Shown: positions 780 to 30,087 of the stretch, in pieces
Position numbering within the stretch: position 1 is the stretch's first letter
How the letters are laid out: each line of letters starts with the position of its first letter
Virus record (IMG/VR): IMGVR_UViG_3300020045_002604
Location: 1 to 61,521 of that record
Direction: 5' to 3' (one strand)
DNA: 61,521 nucleotides
Origin: a virus
Taxonomy: Duplodnaviria > Caudoviricetes
Position numbers and translations under genes: made by a program
Notes under the pieces: model-generated
The model's input: the letters and a program-made list of their open reading frames with translations, nothing else
What the model was told of the DNA's origin: nothing
The model's database searches: none

Positions 780-2491
780 TTGAGGCCCTGGGACTGGAAA
801 GCCCGCGATTCAAAGGCGGATCGGACGGGTGGGATGATGGTCCCGCGTCAGCCATCCTCCTTGCGGACTACTTCACTATCCCAGAAGGGCCGCCAGCCGA
901 CCCTGACATTTCATTCGTGTCAGAGTCGGTACTTGTCGCGCCCATCGGCAACATCAACGCGAACTCGTCCCCGCAGAACCTCGCGGCTCCGGCTGGGCTT
1001 GCGGCGGGGCACCTGCTCGTTGTGGCCATCTGGCCCGCACAGGGACTAGGCGGCTCCAACCAAATCACCACACCCGCCGGGTTGACGAAGATCACCATCG
1101 ACCCGGTGAACCCGGAACGCCTCGCTGGACTGTTTGCCGCAAAGGTAGTGGACCCCGCAGATTTCGCGGGCGGAATCACGATTGCCACGTCGTCGTTCTC
1201 GTCACGTATTGCGGCAGTAGCGCAGGCGTGGGCACCGGGTGATGGGTTCGAGTGGGACTTCACCAGCATCATTGCTACCGGCCCCGAATGGAACGGGTCC
1301 GCGATGTCTGCGGACCTATGGCCAACCATCTCCACCCGAGATTTCACGCTAGGTGCCTCGTTCACAAACAAGGGCGCGTCCACCACACTGACGGTCCACA
1401 CCGCTGACGGTGGCGGGACCAACACGTCACAGTGCCGTGCGGTGTCTGCCGCGTCCGGCTCCGTGTCGGACTCTGTGGTGTCGCTGACGCGAGGCGGCAC
1501 AGGCGTATCGTTCAACATTTCACAGGCCAACGGTCTGACCTATTCGCTTGCGCTCAACCGCACAGAACTCGATCCTCCCGCCAGTCCTCACGGATTCTCT
1601 TCCGTACGACAGATGCGTGAGACACGCGGGGCAACGTGGGCGCACCGCAACCTAGGCGGCACCTACCCGGAAATGACCGTGTACGGTGTTGAGCAGGCGG
1701 CGGCGGCTGGCTTTGGTGTGATCGAAATTTCCTGCCAGCGTACGTCTGATGGGGTGTGGTTCGGTGCCCACGACCAGACGCCTAACCGTGTCACCCTTGA
1801 GACAACGCATGACGGGACGAACTACTCAGCGCTAACGTGGGCGCAAGTGTCTGCAATGAGCATTAATGTTGGCGCAACTGGCGGAACACAGCCATACGCA
1901 ACGCTACAGCAACTTGTAGAGGCTCTGCCCACAGACTTCATCTTCCTGGTGGACCCGAAGCAGTCGGGCGACAATACTACGTACCGCGCAGAGTTTTTGG
2001 ACCTGGTGGACACCCTACTGGGACCGACACGCGCCGTTATTAAGCTAGACGCCTACGCAAACATTAACAGCTTCATCGACGCCAAAGCCCGTGGGTACTA
2101 CGTAGCAACGTACTTCTACGCCGCACCCTCGTCACCTACCGGATCAACCATTGTAGAGGCGCGTCTACCTTACACCGATTTTCCCGGTCTGAACTACGAT
2201 GCCACACAGCCCGGATGGGACGCGTTTCTCGACCCCGCTGGCGCGTACTACTCGCTTGCTCAGGGCAAGCCGATGTGGGGACACGTCTGCCCGGATCAGG
2301 CCGCTCACGACGAAGCAATTAGTAAAGGTGCGTCATTCGTACAATGCACGTCAGTTACGATCACACCTAAGGGTGTGGAGGCGTGGCGGCCCGGTGCTCT
2401 TGGCGACGGCTTCGGACCAACAGAAATCTACGCTGGTACTACCCTAGTACAGAAAGTGTATCGTGGGAACACCCTGATCTGGCAAAGATGA
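776..2491 (+). CDS. Virion protein with C-terminal glycerophosphodiester phosphodiesterase (GDPD)-like domain
   Basis: WAHRN..GTYPEMT, IEISCQRTSDGVWFGAHD, FLVDPKQ match GDPD motifs; beta-rich N-terminus; ATGA overlap with upstream gene. Confidence 0.8.
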   Translation: MIEALGLESPRFKGGSDGWDDGPASAILLADYFTIPEGPPADPDISFVSESVLVAPIGNINANSSPQNLAAPAGLAAGHLLVVAIWPAQGLGGSNQITTPAGLTKITIDPVNPERLAGLFAAKVVDPADFAGGITIATSSFSSRIAAVAQAWAPGDGFEWDFTSIIATGPEWNGSAMSADLWPTISTRDFTLGASFTNKGASTTLTVHTADGGGTNTSQCRAVSAASGSVSDSVVSLTRGGTGVSFNISQANGLTYSLALNRTELDPPASPHGFSSVRQMRETRGATWAHRNLGGTYPEMTVYGVEQAAAAGFGVIEISCQRTSDGVWFGAHDQTPNRVTLETTHDGTNYSALTWAQVSAMSINVGATGGTQPYATLQQLVEALPTDFIFLVDPKQSGDNTTYRAEFLDLVDTLLGPTRAVIKLDAYANINSFIDAKARGYYVATYFYAAPSSPTGSTIVEARLPYTDFPGLNYDATQPGWDAFLDPAGAYYSLAQGKPMWGHVCPDQAAHDEAISKGASFVQCTSVTITPKGVEAWRPGALGDGFGPTEIYAGTTLVQKVYRGNTLIWQR

Positions 2492-2519
2492 TCTATTTAA
2501 CTCCTAAAACACGTTAAGT

Positions 2520-2532
2520 TGTGTGCTAACAT
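2520..2532 (+). promoter_or_regulatory. Extended -10 promoter of capsid operon
   Basis: TGTGC-TAACAT in AT-rich gap; same motif precedes other late genes. Confidence 0.55.
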
Positions 2533-2541
2533 AGAACTCAG

Positions 2542-3462
2542 GTGATTATGCTTAAACCAATCGAAATTTCTGAGTCCCTTGGGACTGTAGCCGCGCTGAC
2601 CGGTACTCGGTACAAGGTGCGGCTAATCGAGGGCGACAAGCTCGGTTCCACCGCTTACTACCCGGCCAGCGTTCTCGCAACGTTCGGACCCAAGGTCTTC
2701 AAGCGCGGCACGCCGATGTTCATTGACCACCAGACGCCCGACGAGAAGAGCGTAAAGCCCTTCGGTTCGGTCACTAACTTTGTTGGTGAGCTAGCGGAAG
2801 ACGCTTACTACGAGAACGATGGCCTCTATGCTGAGGTTGAGGTTTTCGAGGATGCGGCTCCGATGATCAAGGCTCGCAAAGACAAGATCGGCGTATCGAT
2901 TCGAGCCAACGTGGTAGCCGAAACCGGCACCATCGATGGCCGCTCCGTGCCGATTGCCAAGGAATTTACCTCAGCCCGTAGTGTGGACTTCGTTATGAAG
3001 GCCGGGGCTGGCGGTAAGATCGTGTCGATTTTGGAGTCGGCAATCGAAGAGAACCCGGAAACGGGTGTCGAAGAAGGAGACAACATGGATGAAGTCCTAA
3101 AGGCCGTTGCGGCTCTTAAGGGCGAGTTCGTTTCCCGTTTCGAGGCTATCGAGAGCAAGCTTGCTCCCGTGGTTGTCGAAGAGGGTGCGAACGATACCTA
3201 CGCTAAGGCTCTAGAAATCGCTGAGGCTTTTACCGCTTCTACGCTTGACGCTGAGGGTCGCGCCCGTGTGCTCGATCTGCACAAGGCAAACGGCAAGCCG
3301 ATTGCTGAGCTTATCACCGCCGAAGAGGCGTACGTTAAGGCTCACGTCACAACTGATGACGAGCACGGCGTAGAGGAAAGCGCAAACGAGGCCGTAGAGG
3401 CCGAAGAGGGCGCAACTACCAAGATCACGGTGCCGACAATCGGCGCGTGGGGCAAGAAGTAA
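2542..3462 (+). CDS. Capsid maturation protease/scaffold fusion
   Basis: MFIDH, IGVSIRA, SVDFVMKAGAGGKI protease-type motifs, then acidic helical C-terminus; upstream of cement and MCP. Confidence 0.8.
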   Translation: MIMLKPIEISESLGTVAALTGTRYKVRLIEGDKLGSTAYYPASVLATFGPKVFKRGTPMFIDHQTPDEKSVKPFGSVTNFVGELAEDAYYENDGLYAEVEVFEDAAPMIKARKDKIGVSIRANVVAETGTIDGRSVPIAKEFTSARSVDFVMKAGAGGKIVSILESAIEENPETGVEEGDNMDEVLKAVAALKGEFVSRFEAIESKLAPVVVEEGANDTYAKALEIAEAFTASTLDAEGRARVLDLHKANGKPIAELITAEEAYVKAHVTTDDEHGVEESANEAVEAEEGATTKITVPTIGAWGKK

Positions 3463-18909: not shown

Positions 18910-19524
18910 ATGGCGGGTACAACAGCTAAGGGTATTGCCTACCCCACAACAGGCGACCTCATCGATAACCTGCACAGTGTGTTCACTACGCTGGCATCCA
19001 GCGTGGATACGGTGCTTAATGGCTATGTCACCACGGCTAGCATCGCCCTAGAAGCCGACGTAGTAGCTGGTACGTCCACCACTAAAGTAATCTCCCCTAA
19101 GGCGTTGGCAGACGCCAACGTTTACACAGGAGATACCGGGTGGACCGACATTGCCGCGTCCGTAACCGCTGGGTCAGGCTGGACGAAAGGCGGATCGTTT
19201 CTTTGCCGCGCCAGACGCGTCGGCAACATCGTACAGATTCGCATGACGGGATTGACCAAGGCCGCATCACCCACACTGAGTGTGAGTGTGACGGGCAACA
19301 TTGCGAACTCGCTACTGGTATCCGGCGTGCCAGCACAATTCCGACCGGCAGAAGACGTAGCATCGCTTGCTAGCGGCGGTGGGGGCCGCGCTAACGCGTA
19401 CTACCTTAACGCAAGCGGTAGCCTCTACCTAGCCGCTGTAACACCCGCCGCTAACCAGACGGGCACAGTCAACCTGCCTACCAACGAGGAAGTATCCTGC
19501 GGTGGCATGTTCTTCGGAGCTTAA
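18910..19524 (+). CDS. Minor tail/receptor-binding protein
   Basis: GIAYP N-terminus; DTGWTD, RRVGNIVQI, PAQFRP tip motifs. Confidence 0.7.
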   Translation: MAGTTAKGIAYPTTGDLIDNLHSVFTTLASSVDTVLNGYVTTASIALEADVVAGTSTTKVISPKALADANVYTGDTGWTDIAASVTAGSGWTKGGSFLCRARRVGNIVQIRMTGLTKAASPTLSVSVTGNIANSLLVSGVPAQFRPAEDVASLASGGGGRANAYYLNASGSLYLAAVTPAANQTGTVNLPTNEEVSCGGMFFGA

Positions 19525-19529
19525 GGAGG

Positions 19530-19844
19530 ATGAATGAAATCATGGACGAAACCGTAAGTAACACTGCACTTATCAGCCTGGGGCGTATCGAAGCAAGGTT
19601 GGACGCTATGGCGGAAAAAGAAAATAAGACGGGCGACCGCCTCGACAGGGTTGAGGCGGTGCTTGCTGATCAAAATGTTAAGTTCACTAGGCTTGAAGGT
19701 GTAGTTGGAGAGATTAAGAACAACCAGAAGCCCAAGACGCCGTGGTGGCTAGTCCTTGGAGGCGTAGCCGCAACCATCACAGCTCTGCTTGGTTTCTGGA
19801 CGCTGTTCAACGTCGCGGTCGATCTGTCGGTCGTCGGACAATAA
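19530..19844 (+). CDS. Membrane protein (lysis-associated)
   Basis: Coiled coil plus C-terminal TM helix. Confidence 0.65.
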   Translation: MNEIMDETVSNTALISLGRIEARLDAMAEKENKTGDRLDRVEAVLADQNVKFTRLEGVVGEIKNNQKPKTPWWLVLGGVAATITALLGFWTLFNVAVDLSVVGQ

Positions 19845-19857
19845 GTAGGAGAGAAGT

Positions 19858-20133
19858 ATGGAATACAATCTAGGAAGCGTCGTAACTAACGCGACAGCAC
19901 GTAAGATTCTCTACGGCCTGTACGTCATCGCTGGCCTCATCATCGGTGGCGCAAGCGTTGCGTACCCGCTCATCGGAGCAGGCGTAACGCCCGACTGGGT
20001 GACCGCTGGCCTCGCCGTGCTGGGCTACCTGGCTATCCCGTTTGGTGCTCTAGCGCTCGCTAACGTCGGCACGCCGGTCAGCGTGGGTTACGACAGCGAG
20101 GAAATCTTCGTAGCGGAGGAAGAGGTCATCTAA
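19858..20133 (+). CDS. Putative holin
   Basis: Two TM helices, ARKILY..Y, LALANV; end of lysis cassette. Confidence 0.7.
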   Translation: MEYNLGSVVTNATARKILYGLYVIAGLIIGGASVAYPLIGAGVTPDWVTAGLAVLGYLAIPFGALALANVGTPVSVGYDSEEIFVAEEEVI

Positions 20134-20188
20134 CTTTCCCAAGCGGGTTTAGGCCCCCAAGCGAAGGGTAGGTGTCCCTATCTACGAC

Positions 20189-20227
20189 GAAAGCCCCGGT
20201 TAACTACCATAGTTAACCGGGGCTTTC
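20189..20227. terminator. Bidirectional terminator between converging arms
   Basis: Perfect 18-bp stem GAAAGCCCCGGTTAACTA/TAGTTAACCGGGGCTTTC. Confidence 0.85.
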
Positions 20228-20231
20228 TAGT

Positions 20232-20305
20232 TGGCACAGTCTGTAGGAGTCGAACCCACGCTTCTCGGGTTGGAGCCGAGCGTGCTACCGTAACACTTAG
20301 ACCAT
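20232..20305 (-). tRNA. tRNA-Trp(CCA)
   Basis: CTCGG-CT CCA AC-CCGAG; T-loop TTCGACT; CCA end. Confidence 0.9.
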
Positions 20306-20309
20306 ATAG

Positions 20310-20420
20310 CTGAGGACAGTTTTAAGAGTTAACTCGCGTTGCTCTGAGCGTAGGGTGTACTCATCCTGTAGGCTTGTTAGTTGACCAGTAGCCTCACGCC
20401 GCTAGGGCGAAACTGTTTGA
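20310..20420 (-). ncRNA. Putative small structured RNA
   Basis: Closing stem ACAGTTT/AAACTGT with internal hairpins; upstream TGTGG-TATGAT promoter-like site (~20433-20443). Confidence 0.35.
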
Positions 20421-20445
20421 TGTTGTGATAACATCATACCACATT

Positions 20446-20643
20446 TTACAGCGGCGTGTCAACCCCCAGCTTGCCAGCGATCTGTTCCAGTAGCGCTACA
20501 GTGTGCAGTCCTAGCACCACCTGGGTGCTGAGCAGTACATTCTGTGCGGCCTCGCTATGCCCCTCAAGCTCTAGCTCTCGGCTGACGCGTAGACCTTCCT
20601 TAACAAGTTCGCCTAGGCTCTTGGTGTTTTCTGTGTCGGGCAT
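20446..20643 (-). CDS. Hypothetical protein
   Basis: Coupled to upstream gene (TAATG). Confidence 0.65.
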   Translation of the reverse strand: MPDTENTKSLGELVKEGLRVSRELELEGHSEAAQNVLLSTQVVLGLHTVALLEQIAGKLGVDTPL

Positions 20644-21548
20644 TAGCTTGCTTTCCTAGTGTCGAGCGCAGACTGTAGGGGCTTGTTGCCTCGTGACCAG
20701 CCTCCGCAGTTGTCGCACGAAAATAGTTCGTATTCCTGTACGAATGTGTATGTATTGGTGCCGCTCTTTGTGAGAGATTCGTGTGCGCAGTAAGGGCAGT
20801 CGCCACCTTCCGTGGAGAACATACCCATGTGGGGGACGTTCGTGAGCCACGGCAACAGTCGCACGTACAGCCGCTCTGTCAGCCGCACGTCGCCCTCGTT
20901 GTACTCGCGCATCTTGGCCCACGCCTCAGGGTCACCGCCCATGCAGTCGATCCATAGCTGGAACCCCGCGTGCTCAACCTTGGCGCCCACTCCGGTAGCC
21001 TGGGCGATGTAGTCCAGCTTCCTGCTGGGTAGATCGAACCTGGCTCGGTTGGTCTTGAACAGGTCGATACTACGGAACGGCTTTGGCGGGGCCAGCCCGG
21101 CCTGTAGGAACTCGTTGTTGAGTCGCTTAACATCGTAGCGATCACCGTTGTAGGTGATCACAACGTCGGCCCGGCTGAGCAGGTCGTGGGCCGCCCTGAC
21201 CGTCGCCGCGTGTCCGTTGTCGTAATCGCTGTAGTACAGCACTTCGTCATCGCCTAGCCACTTGGCGGCGAAGCACATCATGCCGCCTGGGTCGATCAGC
21301 ATACTGTCTGGAATCCAGTCGGCTTTCTTCGACCACACGTACGCCTGCATGGGCTTGGACTCAATGTCGATTGTCAGAACCCGCGCGCGTGGTAGCACAA
21401 TATCGGCGTGGGCGGTAGGGGCGGCGTCGCCGTAATAAAGCTTACGATACTTGTTCACTGAGGTCTTACCGGTCAGGAGGATACGAGCGGCTTCGCGGCT
21501 ACTCACGTGCGCCGTAGCGTCGATTTGTTCTCGTGTTAGAAATGCCAT
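20643..21548 (-). CDS. DnaQ/RNase H-like (DEDDy) exonuclease with N-terminal HTH and C-terminal Zn ribbon
   Basis: IDIE, YNGDRYD, SRKLDYIA, YNEGDV; CPYC...CDNCG. Confidence 0.85.
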   Translation of the reverse strand: MAFLTREQIDATAHVSSREAARILLTGKTSVNKYRKLYYGDAAPTAHADIVLPRARVLTIDIESKPMQAYVWSKKADWIPDSMLIDPGGMMCFAAKWLGDDEVLYYSDYDNGHAATVRAAHDLLSRADVVITYNGDRYDVKRLNNEFLQAGLAPPKPFRSIDLFKTNRARFDLPSRKLDYIAQATGVGAKVEHAGFQLWIDCMGGDPEAWAKMREYNEGDVRLTERLYVRLLPWLTNVPHMGMFSTEGGDCPYCAHESLTKSGTNTYTFVQEYELFSCDNCGGWSRGNKPLQSALDTRKAS

Positions 21549-21554
21549 TCTACC

Positions 21555-21583
21555 ATCCTAGCATACGAAAAAGGCCCCGTCAA
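21555..21583 (-). promoter_or_regulatory. SigA-type promoter, leaderless; overlaps NrdH terminator hairpin
   Basis: TTGACG-17-TAGGAT, ATG 6 nt downstream. Confidence 0.75.
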
Positions 21584-21596
21584 GGGGCCTTAATCA

Positions 21597-21818
21597 TTAA
21601 AGAGCTGTGATCAGATCAGGTCTAAAACCTGACCAATGTGAGCCATCCGGCGCCACAACCACAGGAGCTTGCAAGTACCCAAGCTCTTTCGTGATGAAAT
21701 CGTATGCCTCACGGTTCTCCGAGATATCGGTGACGTTGTACGGCGTGCCTTGCTTATCTAGCACCTTGTATGTCATTTCGCACTGCACACATGAGGGCTT
21801 TGAAAAAACCTGTACCAA
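21597..21818 (-). CDS. nrdH: NrdH-like glutaredoxin
   Basis: KPSCVQC, GYLQAPVV, HWSGFRPD; likely TTG start after RBS GAAAGG. Confidence 0.9.
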   Translation of the reverse strand: MVQVFSKPSCVQCEMTYKVLDKQGTPYNVTDISENREAYDFITKELGYLQAPVVVAPDGSHWSGFRPDLITAL

Positions 21819-21918
21819 GCTTATTAACCTTTCGATGGGATGACGAATCCCCGGCTCAGATTGTGTCATGAACCGGGGATTCGTTGGGGCTATGTACCTA
21901 TATCAGTATAGCATAGAT

Positions 21919-21997
21919 CGGTAGCCACGGGAGGATTTGAACCTACCTGTCTTCGACGTATCAGATCGACGCTTATACCGGAATTAGCATCGTGGCT
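21919..21997 (-). tRNA. tRNA-Ile(GAT)
   Basis: TCGAT-CT GAT AC-GTCGA; acceptor AGCCACG/CGTGGCT. Confidence 0.8.
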
Positions 21998-21998
21998 A

Positions 21999-22067
21999 TG
22001 GTCCCCCTGCCAGGATTCGAACCCGGACCCGTAGGCTTAGAACACCCTAGGTGATCCATCCAGAGGG
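21999..22067 (-). tRNA. tRNA-Arg(TCT), truncated D-arm
   Basis: T-arm CCGGG TTCGAAT CCTGG, loop GT TCT AA, CCA end; D region only ~11 nt. Confidence 0.6.
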
Positions 22068-22074
22068 ACAGTAT

Positions 22075-22455
22075 TTAGTTGGCGTAATCGAACGGAGAGA
22101 CAGTACCGTCTAGGTAGTGAATGTAACCCTCGTGATCCTTGGCCCACTTGTAGTCACCGTAGACGCTCTCGCGCTCAAGCGGCGTGATCACTCCGTCTAC
22201 GATCAGACGACCATAGACGCTGGGCGACTCCGATCCCGAGCCCCACGCCTCCGACCAACGAGAGCCACAGCACTCGCAGTCACGGCTGTAGTTACCGTCC
22301 TCGTCGTAGCTGTCGAAGTACAGACCGATGCGCTCGGCGCGGTCATTGGCCTCTTCGGCGCTGCCTGCTTCGATGATGACGTAGGGACCGATACCGTCAA
22401 CAGCGTCTTCGAGGAAGAAGCCGCCGCTGTTGTTCTGGTGGAACTCATAAAACAT
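22075..22455 (-). CDS. Hypothetical phage protein
   Basis: FYEFHQNNSGG...DCECCGSRW; RBS AGGAG. Confidence 0.75.
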   Translation of the reverse strand: MFYEFHQNNSGGFFLEDAVDGIGPYVIIEAGSAEEANDRAERIGLYFDSYDEDGNYSRDCECCGSRWSEAWGSGSESPSVYGRLIVDGVITPLERESVYGDYKWAKDHEGYIHYLDGTVSPFDYAN

Positions 22456-22486
22456 GATCTACTCCTAGTTATTTTGTACGGTTAAG

Positions 22487-22560
22487 TGGACGTACCTACT
22501 GGATTCGAACCAGCGTGCGCGGGGTTGCAATCCGCTACCTAGCCTCTCGGTCAAGGTACG
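22487..22560 (-). tRNA. tRNA-Cys(GCA)
   Basis: Loop TT GCA AC; U73 and CCA. Confidence 0.9.
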
Positions 22561-22561
22561 G

Positions 22562-22636
22562 TGGTGGGTGCGGCAGGTAACGATCCCGCCTCCCAAGATT
22601 AAAAGTCAAGTGCTAATCCTTCTCAGCTACACACCC
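22562..22636 (-). tRNA. tRNA-Lys(TTT)
   Basis: Loop CT TTT AA; T-loop ATCGTTA; CCA. Confidence 0.85.
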
Positions 22637-22645
22637 AAAAATAAA

Positions 22646-22719
22646 TGGCTCACAGACCTGGATTCGAACCAAGGCGAACTGATTCAGAGTCAGTCATGCT
22701 ACCGTTACATCATCCGTGA
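22646..22719 (-). tRNA. tRNA-Gln(CTG)
   Basis: ACTGA-CT CTG AA-TCAGT; CCA. Confidence 0.92.
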
Positions 22720-22720
22720 G

Positions 22721-22792
22721 CGCCCCATCCGGGATTCGAACCCAGAATTTCACCTTCGTAGGGTGTTAGTTTATCCGTTAGCTTAACGGGGC
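22721..22792 (-). tRNA. tRNA-Arg(ACG)
   Basis: CACC-CT ACG AA-GGTG. Confidence 0.9.
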
Positions 22793-23074
22793 CTAATCCG
22801 CACAGTGTTCACAGCCTGCGCAACGCTGTTTATGTGTTCTGTCTCTGTGACAATTAGCGCAAACTAAGTCACACTTCATGCTTTCTTTTAGCTGTCTTTC
22901 GTAGGAAATAGACGAGCCTTCCCCTAGCCCAAACGCTTTCTGTGTCGGGTCGCGGTGATCGAAGTCCATTTGCCAGGGTTTGCCCGCCAGTACACAATCT
23001 ACGCAAGCGCTACCATGCGCCTCGATTAATTTTACCTTTGTGCGTTGTCTCCACGCAGTTACCGGGTGCGTCAT
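22793..23074 (-). CDS. HNH endonuclease
   Basis: CVDC...MDFDH...CDLVCANCHRDRT. Confidence 0.85.
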   Translation of the reverse strand: MTHPVTAWRQRTKVKLIEAHGSACVDCVLAGKPWQMDFDHRDPTQKAFGLGEGSSISYERQLKESMKCDLVCANCHRDRTHKQRCAGCEHCAD

Positions 23075-23075
23075 G

Positions 23076-23146
23076 CTCTCCCCCTTGGAATCGAACCAAG
23101 CCCTGATGGTTAACGGCCACCTGCTCCGCCTTGGAGCTGAAGGAGA
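23076..23146 (-). tRNA. tRNA-Asn(GTT)
   Basis: GGTGG-CC GTT AA-CCATC. Confidence 0.85.
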
Positions 23147-23224
23147 ATAACCTCACACACTACCGCCGTGCTACTGAGGAATAAGTGAGGGTTCCTACTC
23201 TCTTCGTGTCACCCACAACCACTG

Positions 23225-23291
23225 TCCTCCCACTAGGAATCGAACCTAGCCTGCAACCGTGTAAAGGTCGCGCCCGCCCAACGACAGGAGG
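23225..23291 (-). tRNA. tRNA-Val(TAC), truncated D-arm
   Basis: GCGACC-TT TAC AC-GGTTGC; T-arm CTAGG TTCGATT CCTAG; D region ~11 nt. Confidence 0.7.
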
Positions 23292-23366
23292 TTACATAGT
23301 GGCCGATACTACCGGTTACCATTTCGGGATACGCTGTACCTGTTATCTAATGGAAGGCCACCACAG

Positions 23367-23440
23367 TGCCGACGACAGGAATCGAACCCGCATACTCCAT
23401 ATTACAAGTATGGTGCTAAACCAGTATTAGCTACATCGGC
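23367..23440 (-). tRNA. tRNA-Thr(TGT)
   Basis: CCATA-CT TGT AA-TATGG. Confidence 0.92.
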
Positions 23441-23453
23441 GTGTATTTAATTG

Positions 23454-23723
23454 TTACTTTCTACGCTTAGGATCATACAGCACTTCATCGAAGATTGCAA
23501 GGTGCTTCTTGTTGAAGCTGTACATTTGCATTCCCTGTCGCGCCGTCCACCCGTACCCTGGCAGGTTGTCCGTCAGCGTTGTGCGGGGTATGCCCGTTGT
23601 GTAGGAGACTTCGCGGTAGCTCGCGCCGTCCTCAAGCAAGGACTTGGCGAACTCCCAACCCTTATCTGTGTAGTTGTGTGTCTTCGGACGACCCGTAGGG
23701 CGACCTGTCTTTACGTATCCCAT
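23454..23723 (-). CDS. HTH DNA-binding protein
   Basis: GRPTGRPK arm plus LLEDGASYREVSYTTGIPRTTL helix-turn-helix. Confidence 0.75.
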   Translation of the reverse strand: MGYVKTGRPTGRPKTHNYTDKGWEFAKSLLEDGASYREVSYTTGIPRTTLTDNLPGYGWTARQGMQMYSFNKKHLAIFDEVLYDPKRRK

Positions 23724-23724
23724 G

Positions 23725-23798
23725 TGCGGCACGGGAGATTCGAACTCCCACTAAATCGTTGGCAACGACTTGTGCTAACCGTTAAACACTAGTACCAC
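23725..23798 (-). tRNA. tRNA-Gly(GCC)
   Basis: AGTCG-TT GCC AA-CGATT. Confidence 0.9.
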
Positions 23799-23799
23799 G

Positions 23800-23874
23800 T
23801 GCGGTAACAGAGACTCGAACTCTGCCTTTCAGTTTGGAAGACTGACGTGCTAATACCACTAACACTACTACCAC
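23800..23874 (-). tRNA. tRNA-Gly(TCC)
   Basis: TCAGT-CT TCC AA-ACTGA. Confidence 0.9.
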
Positions 23875-23875
23875 G

Positions 23876-23947
23876 TGCCCCCGGTAGGTAACGATCCCAC
23901 GTCTACAGGTTAAGAGCCAGTTGCTAATCCATCTCAGCTACGGAGGC
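23876..23947 (-). tRNA. tRNA-Lys(CTT)
   Basis: Loop CT CTT AA; T-loop ATCGTTA. Confidence 0.85.
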
Positions 23948-24027
23948 ATGTGTGGGCCGACCAACTCCCACCGAGTATTTCTACCCTGCGTTTTCCTCCT
24001 AATAACCGAGGTTTGAGGTCGAGTGCG

Positions 24028-24112
24028 CGGAAAGTGGGAGAGTCGAACTCCATACCTTGCGGTACGATCTGTTTAGCAAACAGGCCAGGGCACCAACCCT
24101 GTTCTACCTTCC
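24028..24112 (-). tRNA. tRNA-Ser(GCT)
   Basis: CTGT-TT GCT AA-ACAG; long variable arm TACC GCAA GGTA; G73. Confidence 0.88.
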
Positions 24113-24207
24113 AAGTTTTGAGTACCCGCGCGTGGACAATAAAGTGCTCGCTTCTTCGCCCGTAGTCTAACGACTGTGCGCGGGTACCCAAGTTTTTAGT
24201 TATTAAG

Positions 24208-24290
24208 CGGCGAGTGCAGGATTCGAACCCGCACGACCCAGGAGGTCATCAAGCTTTTCAAGAGCCATAAGTACGCCAATACGACTCGCC
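24208..24290 (-). tRNA. tRNA-Ser(TGA)
   Basis: Loop CT TGA AA; long variable arm; short D-arm. Confidence 0.75.
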
Positions 24291-24355
24291 AAATGGTTAG
24301 AGGCCCGATACTTGTAAGTACCGGGCCTCTGCCAACCAACACAGAAAGGAGGAAT

Positions 24356-24418
24356 TTAACCCAGCACAAAGGCCCCGACGTTATTGCCGGTGCGCTTCGA
24401 CTGGATCGTGATGAACAT
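24356..24418 (-). CDS. Putative leaderless 20-aa peptide MFITIQSKRTGNNVGAFVLG
   Basis: ATG 6 nt after consensus -10. Confidence 0.45.
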   Translation of the reverse strand: MFITIQSKRTGNNVGAFVLG

Positions 24419-24424
24419 ACTGTT

Positions 24425-24453
24425 ATTCTAGCACAACTTTGACGGTTTGTCAA
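24425..24453 (-). promoter_or_regulatory. SigA-type promoter
   Basis: TTGACA-17-TAGAAT with TG extension. Confidence 0.85.
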
Positions 24454-24463
24454 CAGTTAACTG

Positions 24464-24544
24464 TAGCCCCGGAGAGATTTGAACTCTCAATCCTTTCGGC
24501 ACCAGTTTCTAAGACTGGCGTGTATACCGTTCCACCACGGAGCC
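24464..24544 (-). tRNA. tRNA-Leu(TAG)
   Basis: CCAGT-CT TAG AA-ACTGG; variable arm CC GAAA GG. Confidence 0.92.
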
Positions 24545-24545
24545 G

Positions 24546-24619
24546 TACGCGGGGAGGGATTCGAACCCTCACACCCAAGCTTTTGAGGCCCGGAGGTATA
24601 CCGTTCCCATCACCCGCGC
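24546..24619 (-). tRNA. tRNA-Leu(CAA), short variable loop
   Basis: CGGGC-CT CAA AA-GCTTG; Leu-type D loop GGTATAC; A73. Confidence 0.8.
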
Positions 24620-24630
24620 GTATTAAATTG

Positions 24631-24792
24631 TTAGGAGGGTAGCCCCTCCGTCATCACACGGAACTTCGTGCGACGCTTGCGACCCAGCCACTTGGCACCC
24701 ATCTGGGCTGTCTCCCGCGCGCTGTACAAGAACGGTGATCCGTCCCGCATGAGTGCAGTCTGGCGAGTCTTGATGTCGATGAGATAGTACAT
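24631..24792 (-). CDS. Small basic hypothetical protein
   Basis: MYYLIDIK... after purine-rich RBS. Confidence 0.55.
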   Translation of the reverse strand: MYYLIDIKTRQTALMRDGSPFLYSARETAQMGAKWLGRKRRTKFRVMTEGLPS

Positions 24793-24889
24793 GGTACTCT
24801 CTTTCTTGTTGGCGAGTGGTTTCGGCTGGTAACGATCCAGCAACTCCGGGACTTCAATCCAGCGTGTATCCATTAACACTTCAAAACCG

Positions 24890-24964
24890 TGGTGGGAGCA
24901 CTTAGGGTCGAACTAAGCTACCGTTGTTTTACAGACAAGTTGCGCACCCCGCGCACTTACTCCC
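24890..24964 (-). tRNA. tRNA-Tyr(GTA), short variable loop
   Basis: TTGT-CT GTA AA-ACAA; acceptor GGGAGTA/TGCTCCC, A73, CCA. Confidence 0.8.
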
Positions 24965-24965
24965 G

Positions 24966-25038
24966 TACTCCCAAGGGGATTCGAACCCCTGCCACCCGGT
25001 GTGAAAAACCGGCATCCTAACCACTAGACCATGAGAGC
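24966..25038 (-). tRNA. tRNA-Glu(TTC)
   Basis: CCGGT-TT TTC AC-ACCGG. Confidence 0.92.
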
Positions 25039-25170
25039 GTACAACCGGTAGCATACTCTTCTGGCTTACGATCCAGTACCCTTTGCTATGAAATGGAAGA
25101 ACGCCCTCGGTTGTCCGACGTTCCGACTCTGAGTGGTATACCTTGCGGCAGTGACGATACTCAGCCCGCG

Positions 25171-25241
25171 TACTCCGTAGGGGTTTCGATCCCCTGACAA
25201 TAGGTTGAGAACCTAACGTGTTGCCATTACACCAACGGAGC
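25171..25241 (-). tRNA. tRNA-Glu(CTC)
   Basis: TAGG-TT CTC AA-CCTA; T-loop ATCGAAA. Confidence 0.85.
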
Positions 25242-25297
25242 ATAAGAATGAAAACCCTGCAGCTTTAGGCCCGTTTCAGGGGCGATCTTCATTCTAG

Positions 25298-25369
25298 CGA
25301 ACCTAACGGGTTACGATCCCGCTTCCTTCCGGCTGACAACCGGGCGCTTATCCATTCAGCTTTAGGTCC
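25298..25369 (-). tRNA. tRNA-Asp(GTC)
   Basis: CCGG-TT GTC AG-CCGG; T-loop ATCGTAA. Confidence 0.85.
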
Positions 25370-25373
25370 AAGA

Positions 25374-25460
25374 TGCAGTTGTCGGAGAATTTCACGTCCG
25401 AATCGAAGCGGTTCTACCGGCAGGGCCGGGTCCGTGACGCTCTTATTGAGCTACAACTGC
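25374..25460 (-). ncRNA. Rearranged tRNA-like RNA
   Basis: Acceptor GCAGTTG/CAACTGC-A and D-arm GCTC/GAGC intact; anticodon and T regions non-canonical. Confidence 0.6.
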
Positions 25461-25463
25461 AAG

Positions 25464-25541
25464 TGGGGTGAACGACGGGAATCGAACCCGCGACGGACTG
25501 ACTCACAATCAGGCTGAACTGCCAGCAGTTCCCCGTTCAAC
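25464..25541 (-). tRNA. tRNA-His(GTG)
   Basis: CTGA-TT GTG AG-TCAG; G-1, C73, CCA; 6-bp D stem. Confidence 0.85.
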
Positions 25542-25542
25542 G

Positions 25543-25617
25543 TCTAGGTGGCAGGATTCGAACCTGCGGCCTTAAGCTTCCAAAGCAAACACTCTGACCA
25601 AACTGAGCTACACCTAG
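25543..25617 (-). tRNA. tRNA-Pro(TGG)
   Basis: Loop TT TGG AA; C1-G72, A73. Confidence 0.88.
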
Positions 25618-25765
25618 TTATGTGGATACCCTAACAGTTAGCACCGTATGTACGGCCTGTGTCTTGGGATTGTGACTCACGCCCCCGCAAGGTTTCTGGT
25701 CTGGTATCCTCTGCCTCCCACCTCGCAAACCTTTTTCGGTGGGCTGTGCTATTTAGTTTTTAAAG

Positions 25766-25841
25766 TTGCCGGGGAGGGATTCGAACCCTCGATTTCGAGA
25801 TTATGAGACTCGCGTCGTAGACCTAGCTGGACCACCCGACA
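25766..25841 (-). tRNA. tRNA-Met(CAT)
   Basis: CGAG(T)-CT CAT AA-(T)CTCG; initiator vs elongator vs Ile2 not resolved. Confidence 0.85.
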
Positions 25842-25844
25842 ATA

Positions 25845-26583
25845 CCGTGTAGGGGCTGAGAGTACACCCTACAATGGCAAGCTTTCGTTGGATTATTTGT
25901 TCCCAACTTCTCCACAGTATCCCTACTGTACTTACCGCGCCTGGTGGATTTTACGGGGCACCACCCCAGAATCAGAAAGCTACTCCACAGGTTTGACTTC
26001 GTAAAGGGACCGCTAAACCCCTAAACTGCACTACTCCCTTATGAACTACCTTGGCCTTGCGAGCTTCCAGTAGCCTCAGTTCCCGTGTTAGGGCTGAGGA
26101 TTAAGACGCTTTCACTCTCTGACGGAACAGGCTTTCGCTTGTATTTTGAAATACCATTTTCAATATGGAGCACCCTATAACCCAGGTGCGGGGCATGACA
26201 GAGGACGTGCTGTTCCATGAAGTTCCGTAGGCTTTTGACCCACAGTATGCTTCACGCCCTCATGCTTTCGTTGGCGACTACTCACACTCTCCGCTACTTT
26301 CCGAACTGCCGTCCGTGCCGTAGTTTCATGGTGACCGCCCTAGTTTGCCGACTCGGACTTATCACCCTGCGTTGAATACTCAGGCTTACTAGATGCCAGT
26401 CTATGCCTAGACTCGCTCCACCGGTTGGCCCTGCGATTTACACTTCGCTCACCTGAGTAGTGACCGTTACGATCACTTAATCATTGCATTGCGTAGTTTA
26501 CCCTTGCGGGCGGAAGCTTTGTCGAACTTCCTTTCACCAACTCACGTTGGCTTATGGGCTACGCCCCAACACATTGCTGTGTC
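25845..26583 (-). ncRNA. Large structured ncRNA, GOLLD-like
   Basis: ~740 nt with no ORF >=60 aa, between tRNA-Ala and tRNA-Met; many GNRA-capped hairpins and AGUA/GAA motifs; 3' hairpin TGTAGGG-TGTACTCTCAG-CCCCTACA; size and context fit GOLLD. Confidence 0.7.
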
Positions 26584-26584
26584 G

Positions 26585-26657
26585 TGGACCCACGGGGACT
26601 TGAACCCCGCGCCTTCTGCTTGCAAAACAGATGCTCTACCGGATGAGCTATAGGCCC
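26585..26657 (-). tRNA. tRNA-Ala(TGC)
   Basis: TCTGT-TT TGC AA-GCAGA; G3:U70. Confidence 0.93.
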
Positions 26658-26672
26658 GTATTTACTTTGTAC

Positions 26673-26701
26673 ATATTAGCAGAGGCCGGATACTTTGTCA
26701 A
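26673..26701 (-). promoter_or_regulatory. SigA-type promoter of tRNA/ncRNA array
   Basis: TTGACA-17-TAATAT just upstream of tRNA-Ala. Confidence 0.85.
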
Positions 26702-26735
26702 GTACCCGGCCTCTACTTAGATGTAGTAGATGGTT

Positions 26736-26795
26736 TTAGGTACACGAATCAGCGGCATCCTCGAATGCCGGGTAGAGTTCGTGTGTCTTAGTCAT
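26736..26795 (-). CDS. Putative leaderless 19-aa peptide MTKTHELYPAFEDAADSCT
   Basis: ATG 7 nt after consensus -10. Confidence 0.4.
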   Translation of the reverse strand: MTKTHELYPAFEDAADSCT

Positions 26796-26802
26796 GTGTA
26801 CT

Positions 26803-26831
26803 ATCATAGCACAACTTTCTGTGGTTGTCAA
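26803..26831 (-). promoter_or_regulatory. SigA-type promoter
   Basis: TTGACA-17-TATGAT with TG extension. Confidence 0.85.
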
Positions 26832-26885
26832 GAGATTGGCTGGCTGGTTGTTTTTAACGATTAAATATGTTACGATTGTAACACT

Positions 26886-27122
26886 ATGTCAGCTAATCCT
26901 AACAATGTATACTGGGCAACCATTCGCAAACTCGACGCTAAGTACGACTACCTAGAGGTAACACAAACTTCAAAAAGTCGGTGGAGCGTTACCATTGACG
27001 GTCACGACTACTCCGTGCGGACAAACTCCACCGACTTTTGGACTATCCTTGCCGCCGCCTTCAAGCTTCGTGAGAAGCGTCTAGCTAAGCTAGCTCTACA
27101 GGCCACTCAAAATCTAGAGTAA
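26886..27122 (+). CDS. Hypothetical protein (isolated + strand gene)
   Basis: Own -10 TATGT-TACGAT at 26866-26876. Confidence 0.6.
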   Translation: MSANPNNVYWATIRKLDAKYDYLEVTQTSKSRWSVTIDGHDYSVRTNSTDFWTILAAAFKLREKRLAKLALQATQNLE

Positions 27123-27294
27123 GCACCCAGCTTGTGGCTGTCTGCCACCCGCCAAGTTGACGCTCTTCGACGGTATCCAGCTCAGCTTCGGTGATCGTTG
27201 CCGAGTCTAGCACACTGTCTGGCAGATTGTCAAGGGCCTCTAGGATACCTCTCAGGCTAGTAGCCTGGATCGTGTGTTGTCCCTTAAGAATCAT
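27085..27294 (-). CDS. Hypothetical protein
   Basis: ATGA overlap with upstream gene. Confidence 0.6.
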   Translation of the reverse strand: MILKGQHTIQATSLRGILEALDNLPDSVLDSATITEAELDTVEERQLGGWQTATSWVLTLDFEWPVELA

Positions 27295-27503
27295 TTGCGT
27301 TCTTCCTCTACACGTTCTATCTCCCACTCAAGGTAAGCTTTAGCCTTGAGCAAGTCTTCCAACTCGTTGCCCTTGTACGGCGCCCTCAGCACATACTTCA
27401 ACACGTTACCCCTCAGGAACGATTCATGTCGAGTAATCTCGATAGTTTCGATGCCTGAGGGGTGTTGTGTGTAATGAGCAGGGTGCCTTACTTTGTCGCT
27501 CAC
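27291..27503 (-). CDS. DUF3310-like protein
   Basis: VRHPAHY...GIETIE...FLRGNVLKY..RA..KG...EDLLKAKAYL. Confidence 0.85.
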   Translation of the reverse strand: MSDKVRHPAHYTQHPSGIETIEITRHESFLRGNVLKYVLRAPYKGNELEDLLKAKAYLEWEIERVEEERK

Positions 27504-27754: not shown

Positions 27755-28504
27755 TTAACTGAGGTCGGACCAGGAGGTCCCGATGCTGTAGTCTGATAGG
27801 AACGGCACGGCGTCGCCGAGAACCATCCTGCCTGTCTTGCGTAGTTGAAGTCCTACATAGCGACCGATTGTGTCGGCGTTATCGGACGGACCCTCGATCA
27901 TCATGGCGTCATGGACCAGGTTAAACAGCTTGTAGCCTGCATCCTTGAGGGACGGGTTGATACGGATCGCGGTTGCCAGCAGGATATCACTTGACGTACT
28001 CTGCGGCAAGAACGACAGAGCTTCGCGCTCGATGTTCCTGTAATTTTTAGTTGTTACAACTTCCGACTGGAAGCGGCGCCCGAACGGATTGATCAGCAGG
28101 TCACGGCGGCTGGGTATTCTCGCCGCCGCCTTAACGTCTTCGCGCCACTTAGCAAAGCCTACCGCAACAGCCATGTAGTTGTCAATGATCCTCTGGGCTT
28201 CCCAGGTCTTCATGCCTAGGGACTGCGCGATAGCTGGTGCCTGGCGACCGAACGCTAGACCGTACTGAACCGCCTTAACCTTCGTCCGGGCCTCTTTGTG
28301 GAGGACCGGACATTTCTCTTTGTAGACTTCGATTGACCCGAACTCGTGGACGATCTGCGGGAACGCTACAGGCATAAGGTGACTGTCAAAAAAGTCTCCC
28401 GCCCCTTCCTGTAGCGCCCCGATCATCCACTCGTCGTTAGACAGCCGCGCCATGACCCGGAGTTCGGCCTGCGACAAGTCGATGTTAATCATCACCGTCT
28501 TCAT
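27755..28504 (-). CDS. polA: Family A DNA polymerase, C-terminal part (motifs A, B, C)
   Basis: DLSQAELRVMA, RTKVKAVQYGLAFG, NLVHDAM; own RBS GGAGGA before ATG 28504. Confidence 0.92.
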   Translation of the reverse strand: MKTVMINIDLSQAELRVMARLSNDEWMIGALQEGAGDFFDSHLMPVAFPQIVHEFGSIEVYKEKCPVLHKEARTKVKAVQYGLAFGRQAPAIAQSLGMKTWEAQRIIDNYMAVAVGFAKWREDVKAAARIPSRRDLLINPFGRRFQSEVVTTKNYRNIEREALSFLPQSTSSDILLATAIRINPSLKDAGYKLFNLVHDAMMIEGPSDNADTIGRYVGLQLRKTGRMVLGDAVPFLSDYSIGTSWSDLS

Positions 28505-28673
28505 CTGGTTCCTCCCCCTCATCGTCTGGCGGATTGGGCGTGAACCCCATCTGCGTTCGCGTTTCTAGGGTGTGCGTTTCGGGTTCCTCTACTTCGAACC
28601 CGCCGTGTATGATCGTGCACAATACCTCACCGGCATCGTCACCTACATACTTGATAACCGTAAAGCCCTTCAC
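28485..28673 (-). CDS. Small acidic protein between the polymerase halves
   Basis: GTG start after RBS GAGGA; 62 aa with acidic tail. Confidence 0.6.
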   Translation of the reverse strand: MKGFTVIKYVGDDAGEVLCTIIHGGFEVEEPETHTLETRTQMGFTPNPPDDEGEEPDEDGDD

Positions 28674-28674
28674 T

Positions 28675-30087
28675 CTATTCCTCGATCCGCACAATTTCTC
28701 GAACGCGCTTGTCTCGCGGCATGTTCTGGGCGTTGGGCTTCGTGCTGGACAGGCGCCCTGTGGACGTACCGTGCACCAGGAACGTAGGGCGCACCCTTGC
28801 CTGCGTATCGCCGTCGAGCTTGCGGGCCTGGGCGCCCCAGCCCTCGGCGTAGGTGCTGTTCTGCTTGGCCAGCCCCCGGTACTCTAGGAGTACGTGACAC
28901 CAGTCCGCGACAGCGGCCTCGGGGTTGTTTTCGATAAGCTCTGCCAGCGTGGCCTCGTTAGTCGAGAACACCACCCTGCCGAACCGGTCAGAAAGTGCTC
29001 GCTTTACCTGGACGGGACTGTTAGGGTTGAACTTAACATCACCCGCACCCTCCCTAAGCTGGTCGAGCATCAAGTCCATCGTCTGTATATTGGCACTACG
29101 CAGACTCTCTGCCGCCTGGAAGCTAAACGGGATACCGTTCATTTCCACTTCGAGCAGAAGCTCCGCGAGCGCCAACTCAAACTCAAACGCTTTCTGGTTC
29201 TCTTCGTCCGCTTCGATCTGCGGTGCGAACAGTTCCCACAACTTGTAGGTCCAGTACACGTCCCACCCGTTGTAAGTAATCAGAGCACCCCAAGGGATAA
29301 GCTCGTAATGACCTCCACCCTTGGTGTGCTTGTTGATACCCTCTTCCCAGTCCGGTGCGCCGTAGTATCTACGTGCGAGAATCTTGAGTCCATGCTCACC
29401 CGCCGCGTGGTTGAGTACGTGATGGGCCAGCATCGTGTCGAACCATACGTGCAACTCAACACCCAGTACTCTGTTCAGCACGCGGGTATCGAATTTGCCG
29501 TTGTGGTAGATGCCCTTGGTGAACTTAGGTAGCGCCTCTTTGAGCATGTCCAACATGCTCTCGCTAAGGGGCTGGCTACTACCGTCTGTTGCAGGGTTGT
29601 GATATACCACGGGGTAGCACCCATCCTGATACAGCGCGACGGAAATGACCTCTACCTCTTCCGCCGTGTGTGACCTTCCCAGGTTACCGTTTGTTTCAAT
29701 ATCGATAGCCGTGGGCTTGTAGAAGTCGAAGTCGAATAGCGCGGGGTGCGCGGCTCCACTAGCATAACCAGCGGGCTTGATGTGCTCCGGTGGTGTATGC
29801 ACACCATTGAAGTACAACTGCAACGACGACGTGAGCACCGTAGCCGCATTAGCTTTGGCCATGATCTGGGCGATGGAGTACGTGTAGATATACTCGTTGT
29901 CGAAGACCGCCCGTTCTGGGGCGCGCGAGCCGAACACAAGGACACGACGAGGCGACGCGTCGCTGGGCTTAAGCTCTACGAACTTAACGTCGTCGTACCC
30001 GTTAGCTTCCTTGATGTTTTTTAGGACTTCAATCGCTCGGGGAGTCGGCTCCTGCTCTGAGTAAATCCAGCAGATTCGGTGTTCCAT
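28675..30087 (-). CDS. polA: Family A DNA polymerase, N-terminal part (3'-5' exonuclease + thumb)
   Basis: IDIET, HNGKFD, DTMLAH, YNGWDV; FNPNSPVQ; GTSTGRLSSTKPNAQNMPR. Confidence 0.92.
   Translation of the reverse strand: MEHRICWIYSEQEPTPRAIEVLKNIKEANGYDDVKFVELKPSDASPRRVLVFGSRAPERAVFDNEYIYTYSIAQIMAKANAATVLTSSLQLYFNGVHTPPEHIKPAGYASGAAHPALFDFDFYKPTAIDIETNGNLGRSHTAEEVEVISVALYQDGCYPVVYHNPATDGSSQPLSESMLDMLKEALPKFTKGIYHNGKFDTRVLNRVLGVELHVWFDTMLAHHVLNHAAGEHGLKILARRYYGAPDWEEGINKHTKGGGHYELIPWGALITYNGWDVYWTYKLWELFAPQIEADEENQKAFEFELALAELLLEVEMNGIPFSFQAAESLRSANIQTMDLMLDQLREGAGDVKFNPNSPVQVKRALSDRFGRVVFSTNEATLAELIENNPEAAVADWCHVLLEYRGLAKQNSTYAEGWGAQARKLDGDTQARVRPTFLVHGTSTGRLSSTKPNAQNMPRDKRVREIVRIEE

Follow-up and report, generated by a model that had tools for sequence, protein, structure and literature searches.

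What occupies the long interval between the first two genes of this phage's tRNA array? The window, by which we mean the whole stretch of DNA that was analysed, is a complete virus record of 61,521 bp with direct terminal repeats. ARAGORN places 21 tRNA genes in the interval 20232-26657, every one of them on the minus strand. The presumed first gene of the transcript, tRNA-Ala(UGC) (26584..26657, minus strand; Rfam tRNA score: 64.3 bits; CCA not encoded), is followed by a minus-strand gap of 742 nt (25842-26583), then by tRNA-Met(CAU) (25765..25841, minus strand; 53.2 bits) and, further downstream, by the 19 other ARAGORN tRNAs of the array (20232..25617, minus strand). A sequence-only reading had set the gap at 25845-26583, within 3 nt of the ARAGORN boundaries, and its account of the tRNA flanks, the promoter-like site (a consensus match only) and the phage context agrees with ours. 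It had also guessed that the gap carries a GOLLD RNA or a new relative of one. Few natural RNAs are known to form cages free of protein, and GOLLD is one of them. Members of this family are described from phage tRNA islands, as 12- or 14-mer cages (PMC12286853, PMC12990946).

The whole window was scanned against all 4227 Rfam families at their gathering scores, and the region 19500-27500 was rescanned at E ≤ 0.1. At the gathering score, the sole non-tRNA match in the window was GOLLD (RF02032), at 26262..25853 on the minus strand (210.5 bits with respect to a gathering score of 150, E-value: 4e-58). This match spans model positions 1-416 of 416 without truncation, and few of its pairs are flagged as non-canonical. 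The guess of GOLLD membership is borne out by this full-length match, but the novelty implied by "new relative" is not: the locus adds a divergent member to a known family and is not a new kind of RNA. The GOLLD search gave the same result in the phage's own genome and had matches in none of 14 control genomes. A comparison with the Rfam models of both GOLLD and ROOL had been suggested previously, and here GOLLD was matched over its full length and ROOL was not. ROOL would suit the setting, being a large ornate phage RNA that also occurs in tRNA islands and also forms cages, but it is unrelated to this segment in sequence and fold, it had no match at the gathering score in the whole window or at E ≤ 0.1 in 19500-27500, and the permissive rescan of that region returned nothing further in the gap. 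With GOLLD the only one of the 4227 families to match the gap (at the gathering score or at E ≤ 0.1), there is next to no chance that the segment is ROOL or another of the known large ornate RNAs.

The conserved 3'-domain motifs are all present in the Rfam alignment (the L14 loop UCAAAAG, the CGCAA loop, GAGUA, AAUAAUCC and GUAnUCUCA), and these loop and junction motifs are also kept across a 20-sequence alignment with relatives. Further GOLLD traits found here are a structured variable 5' domain upstream and a phage location beside tRNA genes. The segment is almost certainly a GOLLD RNA gene and a member of RF02032, and the best explanation for it, which we hold to be very probable, is a GOLLD RNA gene of a compact, actinobacteriophage-associated subtype. 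Folding stability is a weak signal at this locus (z = -1.88; 1 of 20 shuffles folds as well) and the MFE structure is at odds with the helices supported by covariation, so the thermodynamic fold was not used for the anatomy; that the feature is more than chance follows from the Rfam E-value and from covariation in relatives. The Rfam model of GOLLD is restricted to the conserved 3' region, so that the ~320 nt separating the match from tRNA-Ala should be the variable 5' domain.

Which other phages carry this RNA? A BLASTN search of GenBank phages returned only 27 Mycobacterium phage records, including M. abscessus prophages and the cluster M phages Bongo, PegLeg, Reindeer, Estes, Aziz and others, and each record covers 12-20% of the query at the boundary of the 5' and 3' domains. 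The homologous place in Bongo (2201-2957) is an unannotated 757-nt gap from tRNA-Asn to tRNA-Arg, while that in Estes (2167-3018) has a tRNA-Leu inside. In a four-way alignment, homology extends over the full length, 5' domain included. Further relatives were found by scans with alignment-derived patterns, for which an nhmmer profile served as a filter. A loose 5' pattern that allowed gaps of variable length gave mostly chance matches in unrelated taxa and was replaced by a tighter one, for which nhmmer upheld 1 of 6 genome matches and 9 of 18 metagenome matches. Across both domains, 25 further loci match, some of them duplicates of one record. The clade comprises loci in cluster M phages, in ~80-kb prophage-like viral contigs, in metagenome contigs and in two MAGs, one of Propionibacteriaceae (L362) and one of Actinomycetes (L301). 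The Rfam GOLLD threshold is passed by 14 of the 16 relatives scanned (160.9-235.2 bits), with L373 and L301 falling below it; scores in Bongo, Estes, L134 and L180 are 182-216 bits. Identity with the window is 76.9% (3' domain) and ~50% (5' domain) for the nearest relatives, L035 and L383, and 62-64% and 52-58%, respectively, for the mycobacteriophages. By these identities, the window lacks a close relative and is divergent within the clade.

The gap had been called free of ORFs, which holds only roughly: four mechanically called ORFs of 40-59 aa overlap it, the longest of which (59 aa; 26039-26218, minus strand) has no Pfam match. These ORFs, and the hypothetical protein annotated under the matching stretch in 18 of the 27 phage records, are what would speak for a gap that encodes one or more small proteins. 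The Rfam model, in contrast, explains the whole 3' half, substitutions are paired and compensatory as in an RNA, indels are frequent, and no conserved reading frame with codon-like substitution was seen across the clade. A coding function for the gap is extremely improbable. In the GenBank records of cluster M phages, the GOLLD gene is either unannotated or overlaid by short "hypothetical protein" ORFs. The clade is present, mostly unannotated or mis-annotated as small ORFs, in culturable cluster M phages that grow on the M. smegmatis mc2 155 laboratory strain, where genetics is feasible.

Helix and loop names used here were inferred by matching the Rfam structure line to text descriptions in papers, and all coordinates are on the minus strand. 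The P13/P14 hairpin (26200..26262; Rfam model positions 1-62) opens the conserved 3' region and carries an intact L14 loop, UCAAAAG, at 26238..26232 in the Rfam alignment. It is followed by the internal linker J13/15 (26124..26199), which is 76 nt long, forms small hairpins only and carries the GCG of a kissing pair, and then by the conserved 3' domain from P17 to P27 (25853..26123). In the Rfam alignment, the latter includes L20 (CGCAA, 26061..26057), L21 (UUUAGCGG, 26017..26010), L26 (AAUAAUCC, 25897..25890) and L27 (UGUACUCUCAG, 25866..25856). The hairpins and 3' motifs quoted in the sequence-only reading were all recovered on the minus strand: AATAATCC belongs to L26 and TGTACTCTCAG to L27, and reading the reverse complement places GCGAAAGC at 26138..26131, GTCTTAATC at 26107..26099 and the hairpin motifs CCCGCAAGGG and GTGATCGTAACGGTCAC at 26510..26501 and 26476..26460, respectively.

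Could this RNA assemble with copies of itself? Three elements with a reported role in bridging cage subunits can be recognized in its sequence, namely the A-rich loop L14, the kissing pair of J13/15 with L20 and the GC core of L21. In GOLLD, L14 makes an A-minor contact according to Kretsch et al. (PMC12286853). The J13/15-L20 kissing pair (bridge B7) joins GCG at 26138..26136 with CGC at 26061..26059 through three Watson-Crick pairs. Among the matches listed, the same pair in 97 mainstream viral GOLLDs reads GCA/CGC in 45, GGA/CCC in 37 and GAA or GAG/CTC in 4, with other combinations in the rest; its middle position covaries (C-G, G-C, A-T) and at least two of the three pairs are kept in 96 of these 97. 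Within the clade, at least two pairs form in 18 of 20 sequences and the other two look misaligned. All 20 clade members have the central GC of L21. It is part of a palindromic 4-nt core (GGCC, AGCU or UGCA) in 15 of them and of AGCG, in which only the central GC is self-complementary, in the window and four others. The published account of L21a is of a self-kissing GC/CG dinucleotide, which this central GC fits; in GOLLD cages, the L21/L21a loop is described as joining the two half-shells. These three features are consistent with an oligomerising GOLLD, and by homology the product may be a cage. We consider cage formation by the window's GOLLD to be quite probable, on extrapolation from two solved GOLLDs with 5' domains unlike that of the window. 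The number of subunits is described as varying with 5'-domain and P21 content in a review (PMC12990946).

The 5' domain (26263..26570, minus strand) is ~310 nt in length, is of the compact type found in this actinophage clade and can be aligned with those of 19 relatives, in which its helices show compensatory changes. An explicit structure was drawn up for its first subdomain (82 nt; 26488..26569, minus strand). It has a 3-bp hairpin in which the 6-nt loop (GCGUAG) forms a second helix with CUACGC, located 80 nt downstream; the two helices covary. Its other elements are a GUGA-capped hairpin, a GGAAG/CUUCC hairpin and a CCC-GCAA-GGG hairpin. The sequence-only reading held that a genuine structured RNA here should covary, and this proved to be the case in the relatives. 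For 14 distinct sequences over these first 82 nt, 95.1% of cells are paired as compared to 78.4% in column shuffles and 34-42% in slid controls, 15 of 25 pairs have changed on both sides, and none of 500 shuffles reaches any of five measures. The GNRA-capped hairpin has both-side changes at 4 of its 6 pairs. Over the 20-sequence full-length alignment, RNAalifold predicts 135 pairs, 100 of which have a compensatory change in at least one sequence, and more covarying helices are located at columns 285-322 and 343-356. The central ~150 nt of the 5' domain is poorly aligned by MAFFT and was left out of the structure model. A long-range pairing of the 5' end with the P17 strand, also proposed by RNAalifold, was dropped in favour of the Rfam P17 helix, and the GCGUC/GGCGC helix predicted by the same program looks like a pseudoknot across P17.

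A different view of the locus would be that it is a decaying, non-functional GOLLD relic carried in the tRNA array. Consistent with decay, the window lacks the linker tRNA or tRNA-like element that many clade members have, its L21 core is not a full palindrome, and its nearest relative is only ~77% (3' domain) and ~50% (5' domain) identical. Decay would not readily account for an untruncated Rfam match 60 bits over the threshold with few non-canonical pairs, for a first 5' subdomain whose helices all pair in the window's own sequence, or for a kissing pair intact at 3 bp. In addition, the phage genome around the gene is complete and has terminal repeats, and dead sequence is not likely to last in such a genome. 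We regard a relic as very unlikely.

How does the 5' domain compare with those of GOLLDs outside the clade? A 3'-motif scan of viral contigs provided a sample of at least 120 loci, and at least 1000 nt of sequence was available for 99 of the 121 motif-bearing candidates listed (the window's own locus counted). When the 5' regions were clustered by BLASTN, 94 of these 99 among the matches listed fell into one cluster, with the window and L035 outside it. A covariance model of the clade's first subdomain matched 1 of the 100 viral GOLLD-motif loci listed, namely its own training sequence L035, in a run that left out loci L102-L122. The 5' domain is also shorter than that of env-38 (~310 as compared to ~420 nt). 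One could conclude from this that the locus represents an RNA family of its own, with nothing but a GOLLD-like 3' module in common, and that its different 5' domain gives it a different architecture and function. When 14 randomly chosen mainstream GOLLDs were aligned, however, their 5' ends were judged by eye to follow the same plan as the clade: a hairpin with a 6-nt loop and a distal strand that pairs and covaries with this loop, then an AUAA(G/A)C junction, a GNRA hairpin and an AAAG junction. Variable 5' domains are moreover part of the definition of GOLLD as given in PMC12286853 and PMC12990946, and a 700-nt GOLLD described as lacking several 5' helices and P21b still forms a cage. The P21 region has two hairpins in mainstream sequences and one in the clade. 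Given the common 5' plan, the shorter 5' domain and the single P21 hairpin, we read the clade as diverged, shortened GOLLD and not as another family, which would be a most improbable outcome.

One solved member for comparison is the env-38 GOLLD, an 833-nt RNA with a 5' domain of ~420 nt that assembles as a D7 nanocage of 14 subunits (Kretsch et al., Nature 2025, PMC12286853). The window resembles it in matching the whole 3' model, in the L14 UCAAAAG loop, in kissing complementarity, in the L26 and L27 motifs and in its phage location beside tRNA-Met. It differs in total length (~720-742 nt), in having one hairpin in place of P21a plus P21b, and in a 5' domain with no BLASTN- or nhmmer-detectable similarity to mainstream 5' domains. 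The 700-nt GOLLD of Streptococcus agalactiae, described in a review (PMC12990946) as a dodecamer without P9, P11a-c and P21b, is the 700-nt RNA referred to above. Compared by description only, it is similar to the window in size, in its reduced 5' domain and in a single P21 hairpin with a self-kissing loop, but its host phylum is Bacillota whereas that of the window is presumed to be Actinomycetota. GOLLD genes have also been described in Mycobacterium tRNA arrays (Behra et al. 2019, PMC6582537). The mycobacterial and cluster M GOLLDs have the same 5'-domain type as the window, can be aligned with it over the full length, and are likewise located in large tRNA arrays with a tRNA directly after the RNA; unlike many of them, the window has no tRNA or tRNA-like insert in the linker. 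This 5'-domain type may already be included in the supplementary GOLLD alignment of Kretsch et al. and in Morgado et al. 2020 on Mycobacterium tRNA arrays.

The locus leaves the general picture of GOLLD unchanged and adds a divergent, compact sequence from a complete phage genome, one that is useful in comparative structural work on how 5'-domain size relates to stoichiometry and which bridges are invariant. A stronger proposal, for which we would claim perhaps a minority chance, is that of a compact GOLLD subclass specific to actinophages, with a ~310-nt 5' cap and a single P21 hairpin, cut from tRNA arrays by tRNA-processing enzymes, that could differ in stoichiometry or cap geometry from the solved 12- and 14-mers. 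If that proposal is correct, the caging of an embedded tRNA would not be the core function of the RNA (the window, L137 and L384 have no linker tRNA), and the cage would instead act in trans, its targets being the phage tRNA pool, ribosomes or host defences directed at tRNA.

In the window's 76-nt linker, no tRNA was found by ARAGORN or by Rfam at E ≤ 0.1. ARAGORN identifies a linker tRNA or tRNA-like gene in 7 of 17 relatives, and the Rfam tRNA model matches the linker in 9 of 16, three of these without an acceptor stem. The acceptor-less inserts are at 713-775 in L035, 828-890 in L383 and 5422-5483 in L362; they correspond to tRNA model positions 5-66 of 71 and appear as tRNA-like bodies that are not called by ARAGORN. 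A few other relatives (L137 and L384) share with the window the absence of a linker tRNA. An embedded tRNA is therefore not required in the GOLLD family, and the locus itself speaks for a dispensable linker tRNA. A review (PMC12990946) quotes for GOLLD the hypothesis of "storage of its own tRNA", and dispensability of the linker tRNA argues against such storage as a general GOLLD function.

How might the RNA be transcribed and released? A sigma-70-like promoter candidate, TTGACA-17-TAATAT, is located at 26673..26701 on the minus strand, 16 nt upstream of tRNA-Ala (consensus scan, 10/12), and a second candidate, TTGACA-17-TATGAT (26831..26803, minus strand; 11/12), is found 130 nt further up. 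Such sites number 12 in 19500-27500 as compared to 5.1 +/- 2.3 in shuffles. The nearer one, a consensus match, is the presumed start of the tRNA-Ala / GOLLD / tRNA array transcript. Centred on its -35 hexamer is a 34-nt near-perfect palindrome (26681-26714, minus strand), AGAGGCCGG-GTACTT-GACA-AAGTAT-CCGGCCTCT, with no T-run after it on either strand; this palindrome may be an operator or a regulatory hairpin.

The GOLLD gene is at the head of the array, with its first conserved base 13 nt past the end of tRNA-Ala and its last model position 11 nt from the start of tRNA-Met; the distance from the L27 motif to tRNA-Met is 16 nt. Of 10 distinct clade loci, 8 have a tRNA on the same strand that starts at most 40 nt from the L27 motif, and all 10 have one within 150 nt, whereas a tRNA at most 40 nt from L27 occurs in 15 of 98 mainstream loci among the matches listed. 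Several relatives also have a tRNA immediately before the RNA, and in others a promoter-like TTGACA-17-TATAAC is found just upstream of it. From this abutment, in which the clade RNA is bounded by tRNAs on both sides, we infer that the RNA is cut from a tRNA transcript by RNase P and tRNA 3'-end processing. Excision of GOLLD by tRNA processing is probable, and the whole inter-tRNA segment (25842..26583, minus strand) would be the GOLLD precursor if it is freed in this way.

The events at this locus can be tentatively ordered as follows. Transcription would proceed leftward from the sigma-70-like promoter, with GOLLD as the second unit of a tRNA-Ala / GOLLD / tRNA-Met / tRNA array transcript. 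Host tRNA-processing enzymes would then free the RNA, with its 3' end created by RNase P cleavage at tRNA-Met and its 5' end by maturation of the tRNA-Ala 3' end. In sequence, the RNA conforms to the GOLLD fold of two domains, a conserved 3' domain and a covarying 5' domain, and by homology the folded RNA would self-assemble into a dihedral, RNA-only nanocage through L14 A-minor contacts, J13/15-L20 kissing and L21-L21 self-kissing, with the 76-nt linker facing the cage interior. More speculatively, the cage might act during lytic growth on tRNA or on the translation machinery; since the window's linker holds no tRNA, such action would be in trans and not by the caging of its own tRNA. A role linked to tRNA or translation is a speculation to which we would give somewhat less than an even chance.

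A discrete long RNA that increases in the lytic cycle would be expected of a GOLLD. None of the public sequencing runs searched contained the phage's own sequence (best share of words: 0.05). Metatranscriptome run X4 gave a 558-nt contig of a relative, ~87% identical and wholly inside the gene (26010-26564), and runs X1 and X2 (probably one data set filed twice, and only guessed to be RNA) gave contigs of 335 and 331 nt, 90-95% identical and also wholly inside the gene. Run X5 matched only the tRNA flanks. These contigs are a weak hint that close relatives may exist as discrete RNAs.

The remainder of the array has several features of its own. Three tRNA-like elements on the minus strand are not called by ARAGORN (22565-22636, 24029-24112 and 22003-22067): they comprise an Rfam tRNA (40 bits), a tRNA-like element with a long arm that matches the tRNA-Sec model below its cut-off (43.8 bits; cut-off: 47) and a weak tRNA-like match. 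With these elements, the array may hold 22-23 tRNAs. Protein genes for an RNase H-superfamily protein (PF13482, 301 aa), a glutaredoxin (90 aa) and a DUF7296 protein (126 aa) are located amid the tRNAs at 20643-22455 (minus strand). An HNH endonuclease is described for mycobacterial GOLLD/tRNA arrays, but none was found among the array ORFs scanned here; similarly, a tmRNA is nearby in 7 of 16 relatives scanned, while the Rfam scan found none in the window. The 147-nt spacer between tRNA-Met and tRNA-Pro (25618-25764, minus strand) has no minus-strand ORF and no Rfam match but contains a CCCCCGCAAGG-type hairpin, and may be another small RNA or a processing spacer.

What kind of phage carries this gene? 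PHROG matches include a terminase, portal, protease, capsid, 1490-aa tape measure, primase, helicase and family A DNA polymerase. When 20 kb of the phage was compared with GenBank phages by megablast, there was no match. Among cultured phages, Arthrobacter phages such as Amigo and Molivia come closest at the protein level (33-34% aa identity, portal and primase), and almost all other protein matches are to actinobacteriophages. The phage is siphovirus-like and distantly related to actinobacteriophages. An actinobacterial host is probable, judging from these matches, from the taxa in which the GOLLD clade occurs and from a GC content of 51-62%. Two ORFs within 27755-30087 (minus strand), ~150 nt apart, correspond to the family A DNA polymerase: ORF 28675-30087 (470 aa) has the PHROG DNA polymerase match, and ORF 27755-28522 (255 aa) matches Pfam DNA_pol_A positions 151-380. 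The cause could be a frameshift, a gene that has been split or a small element lying between the two ORFs.
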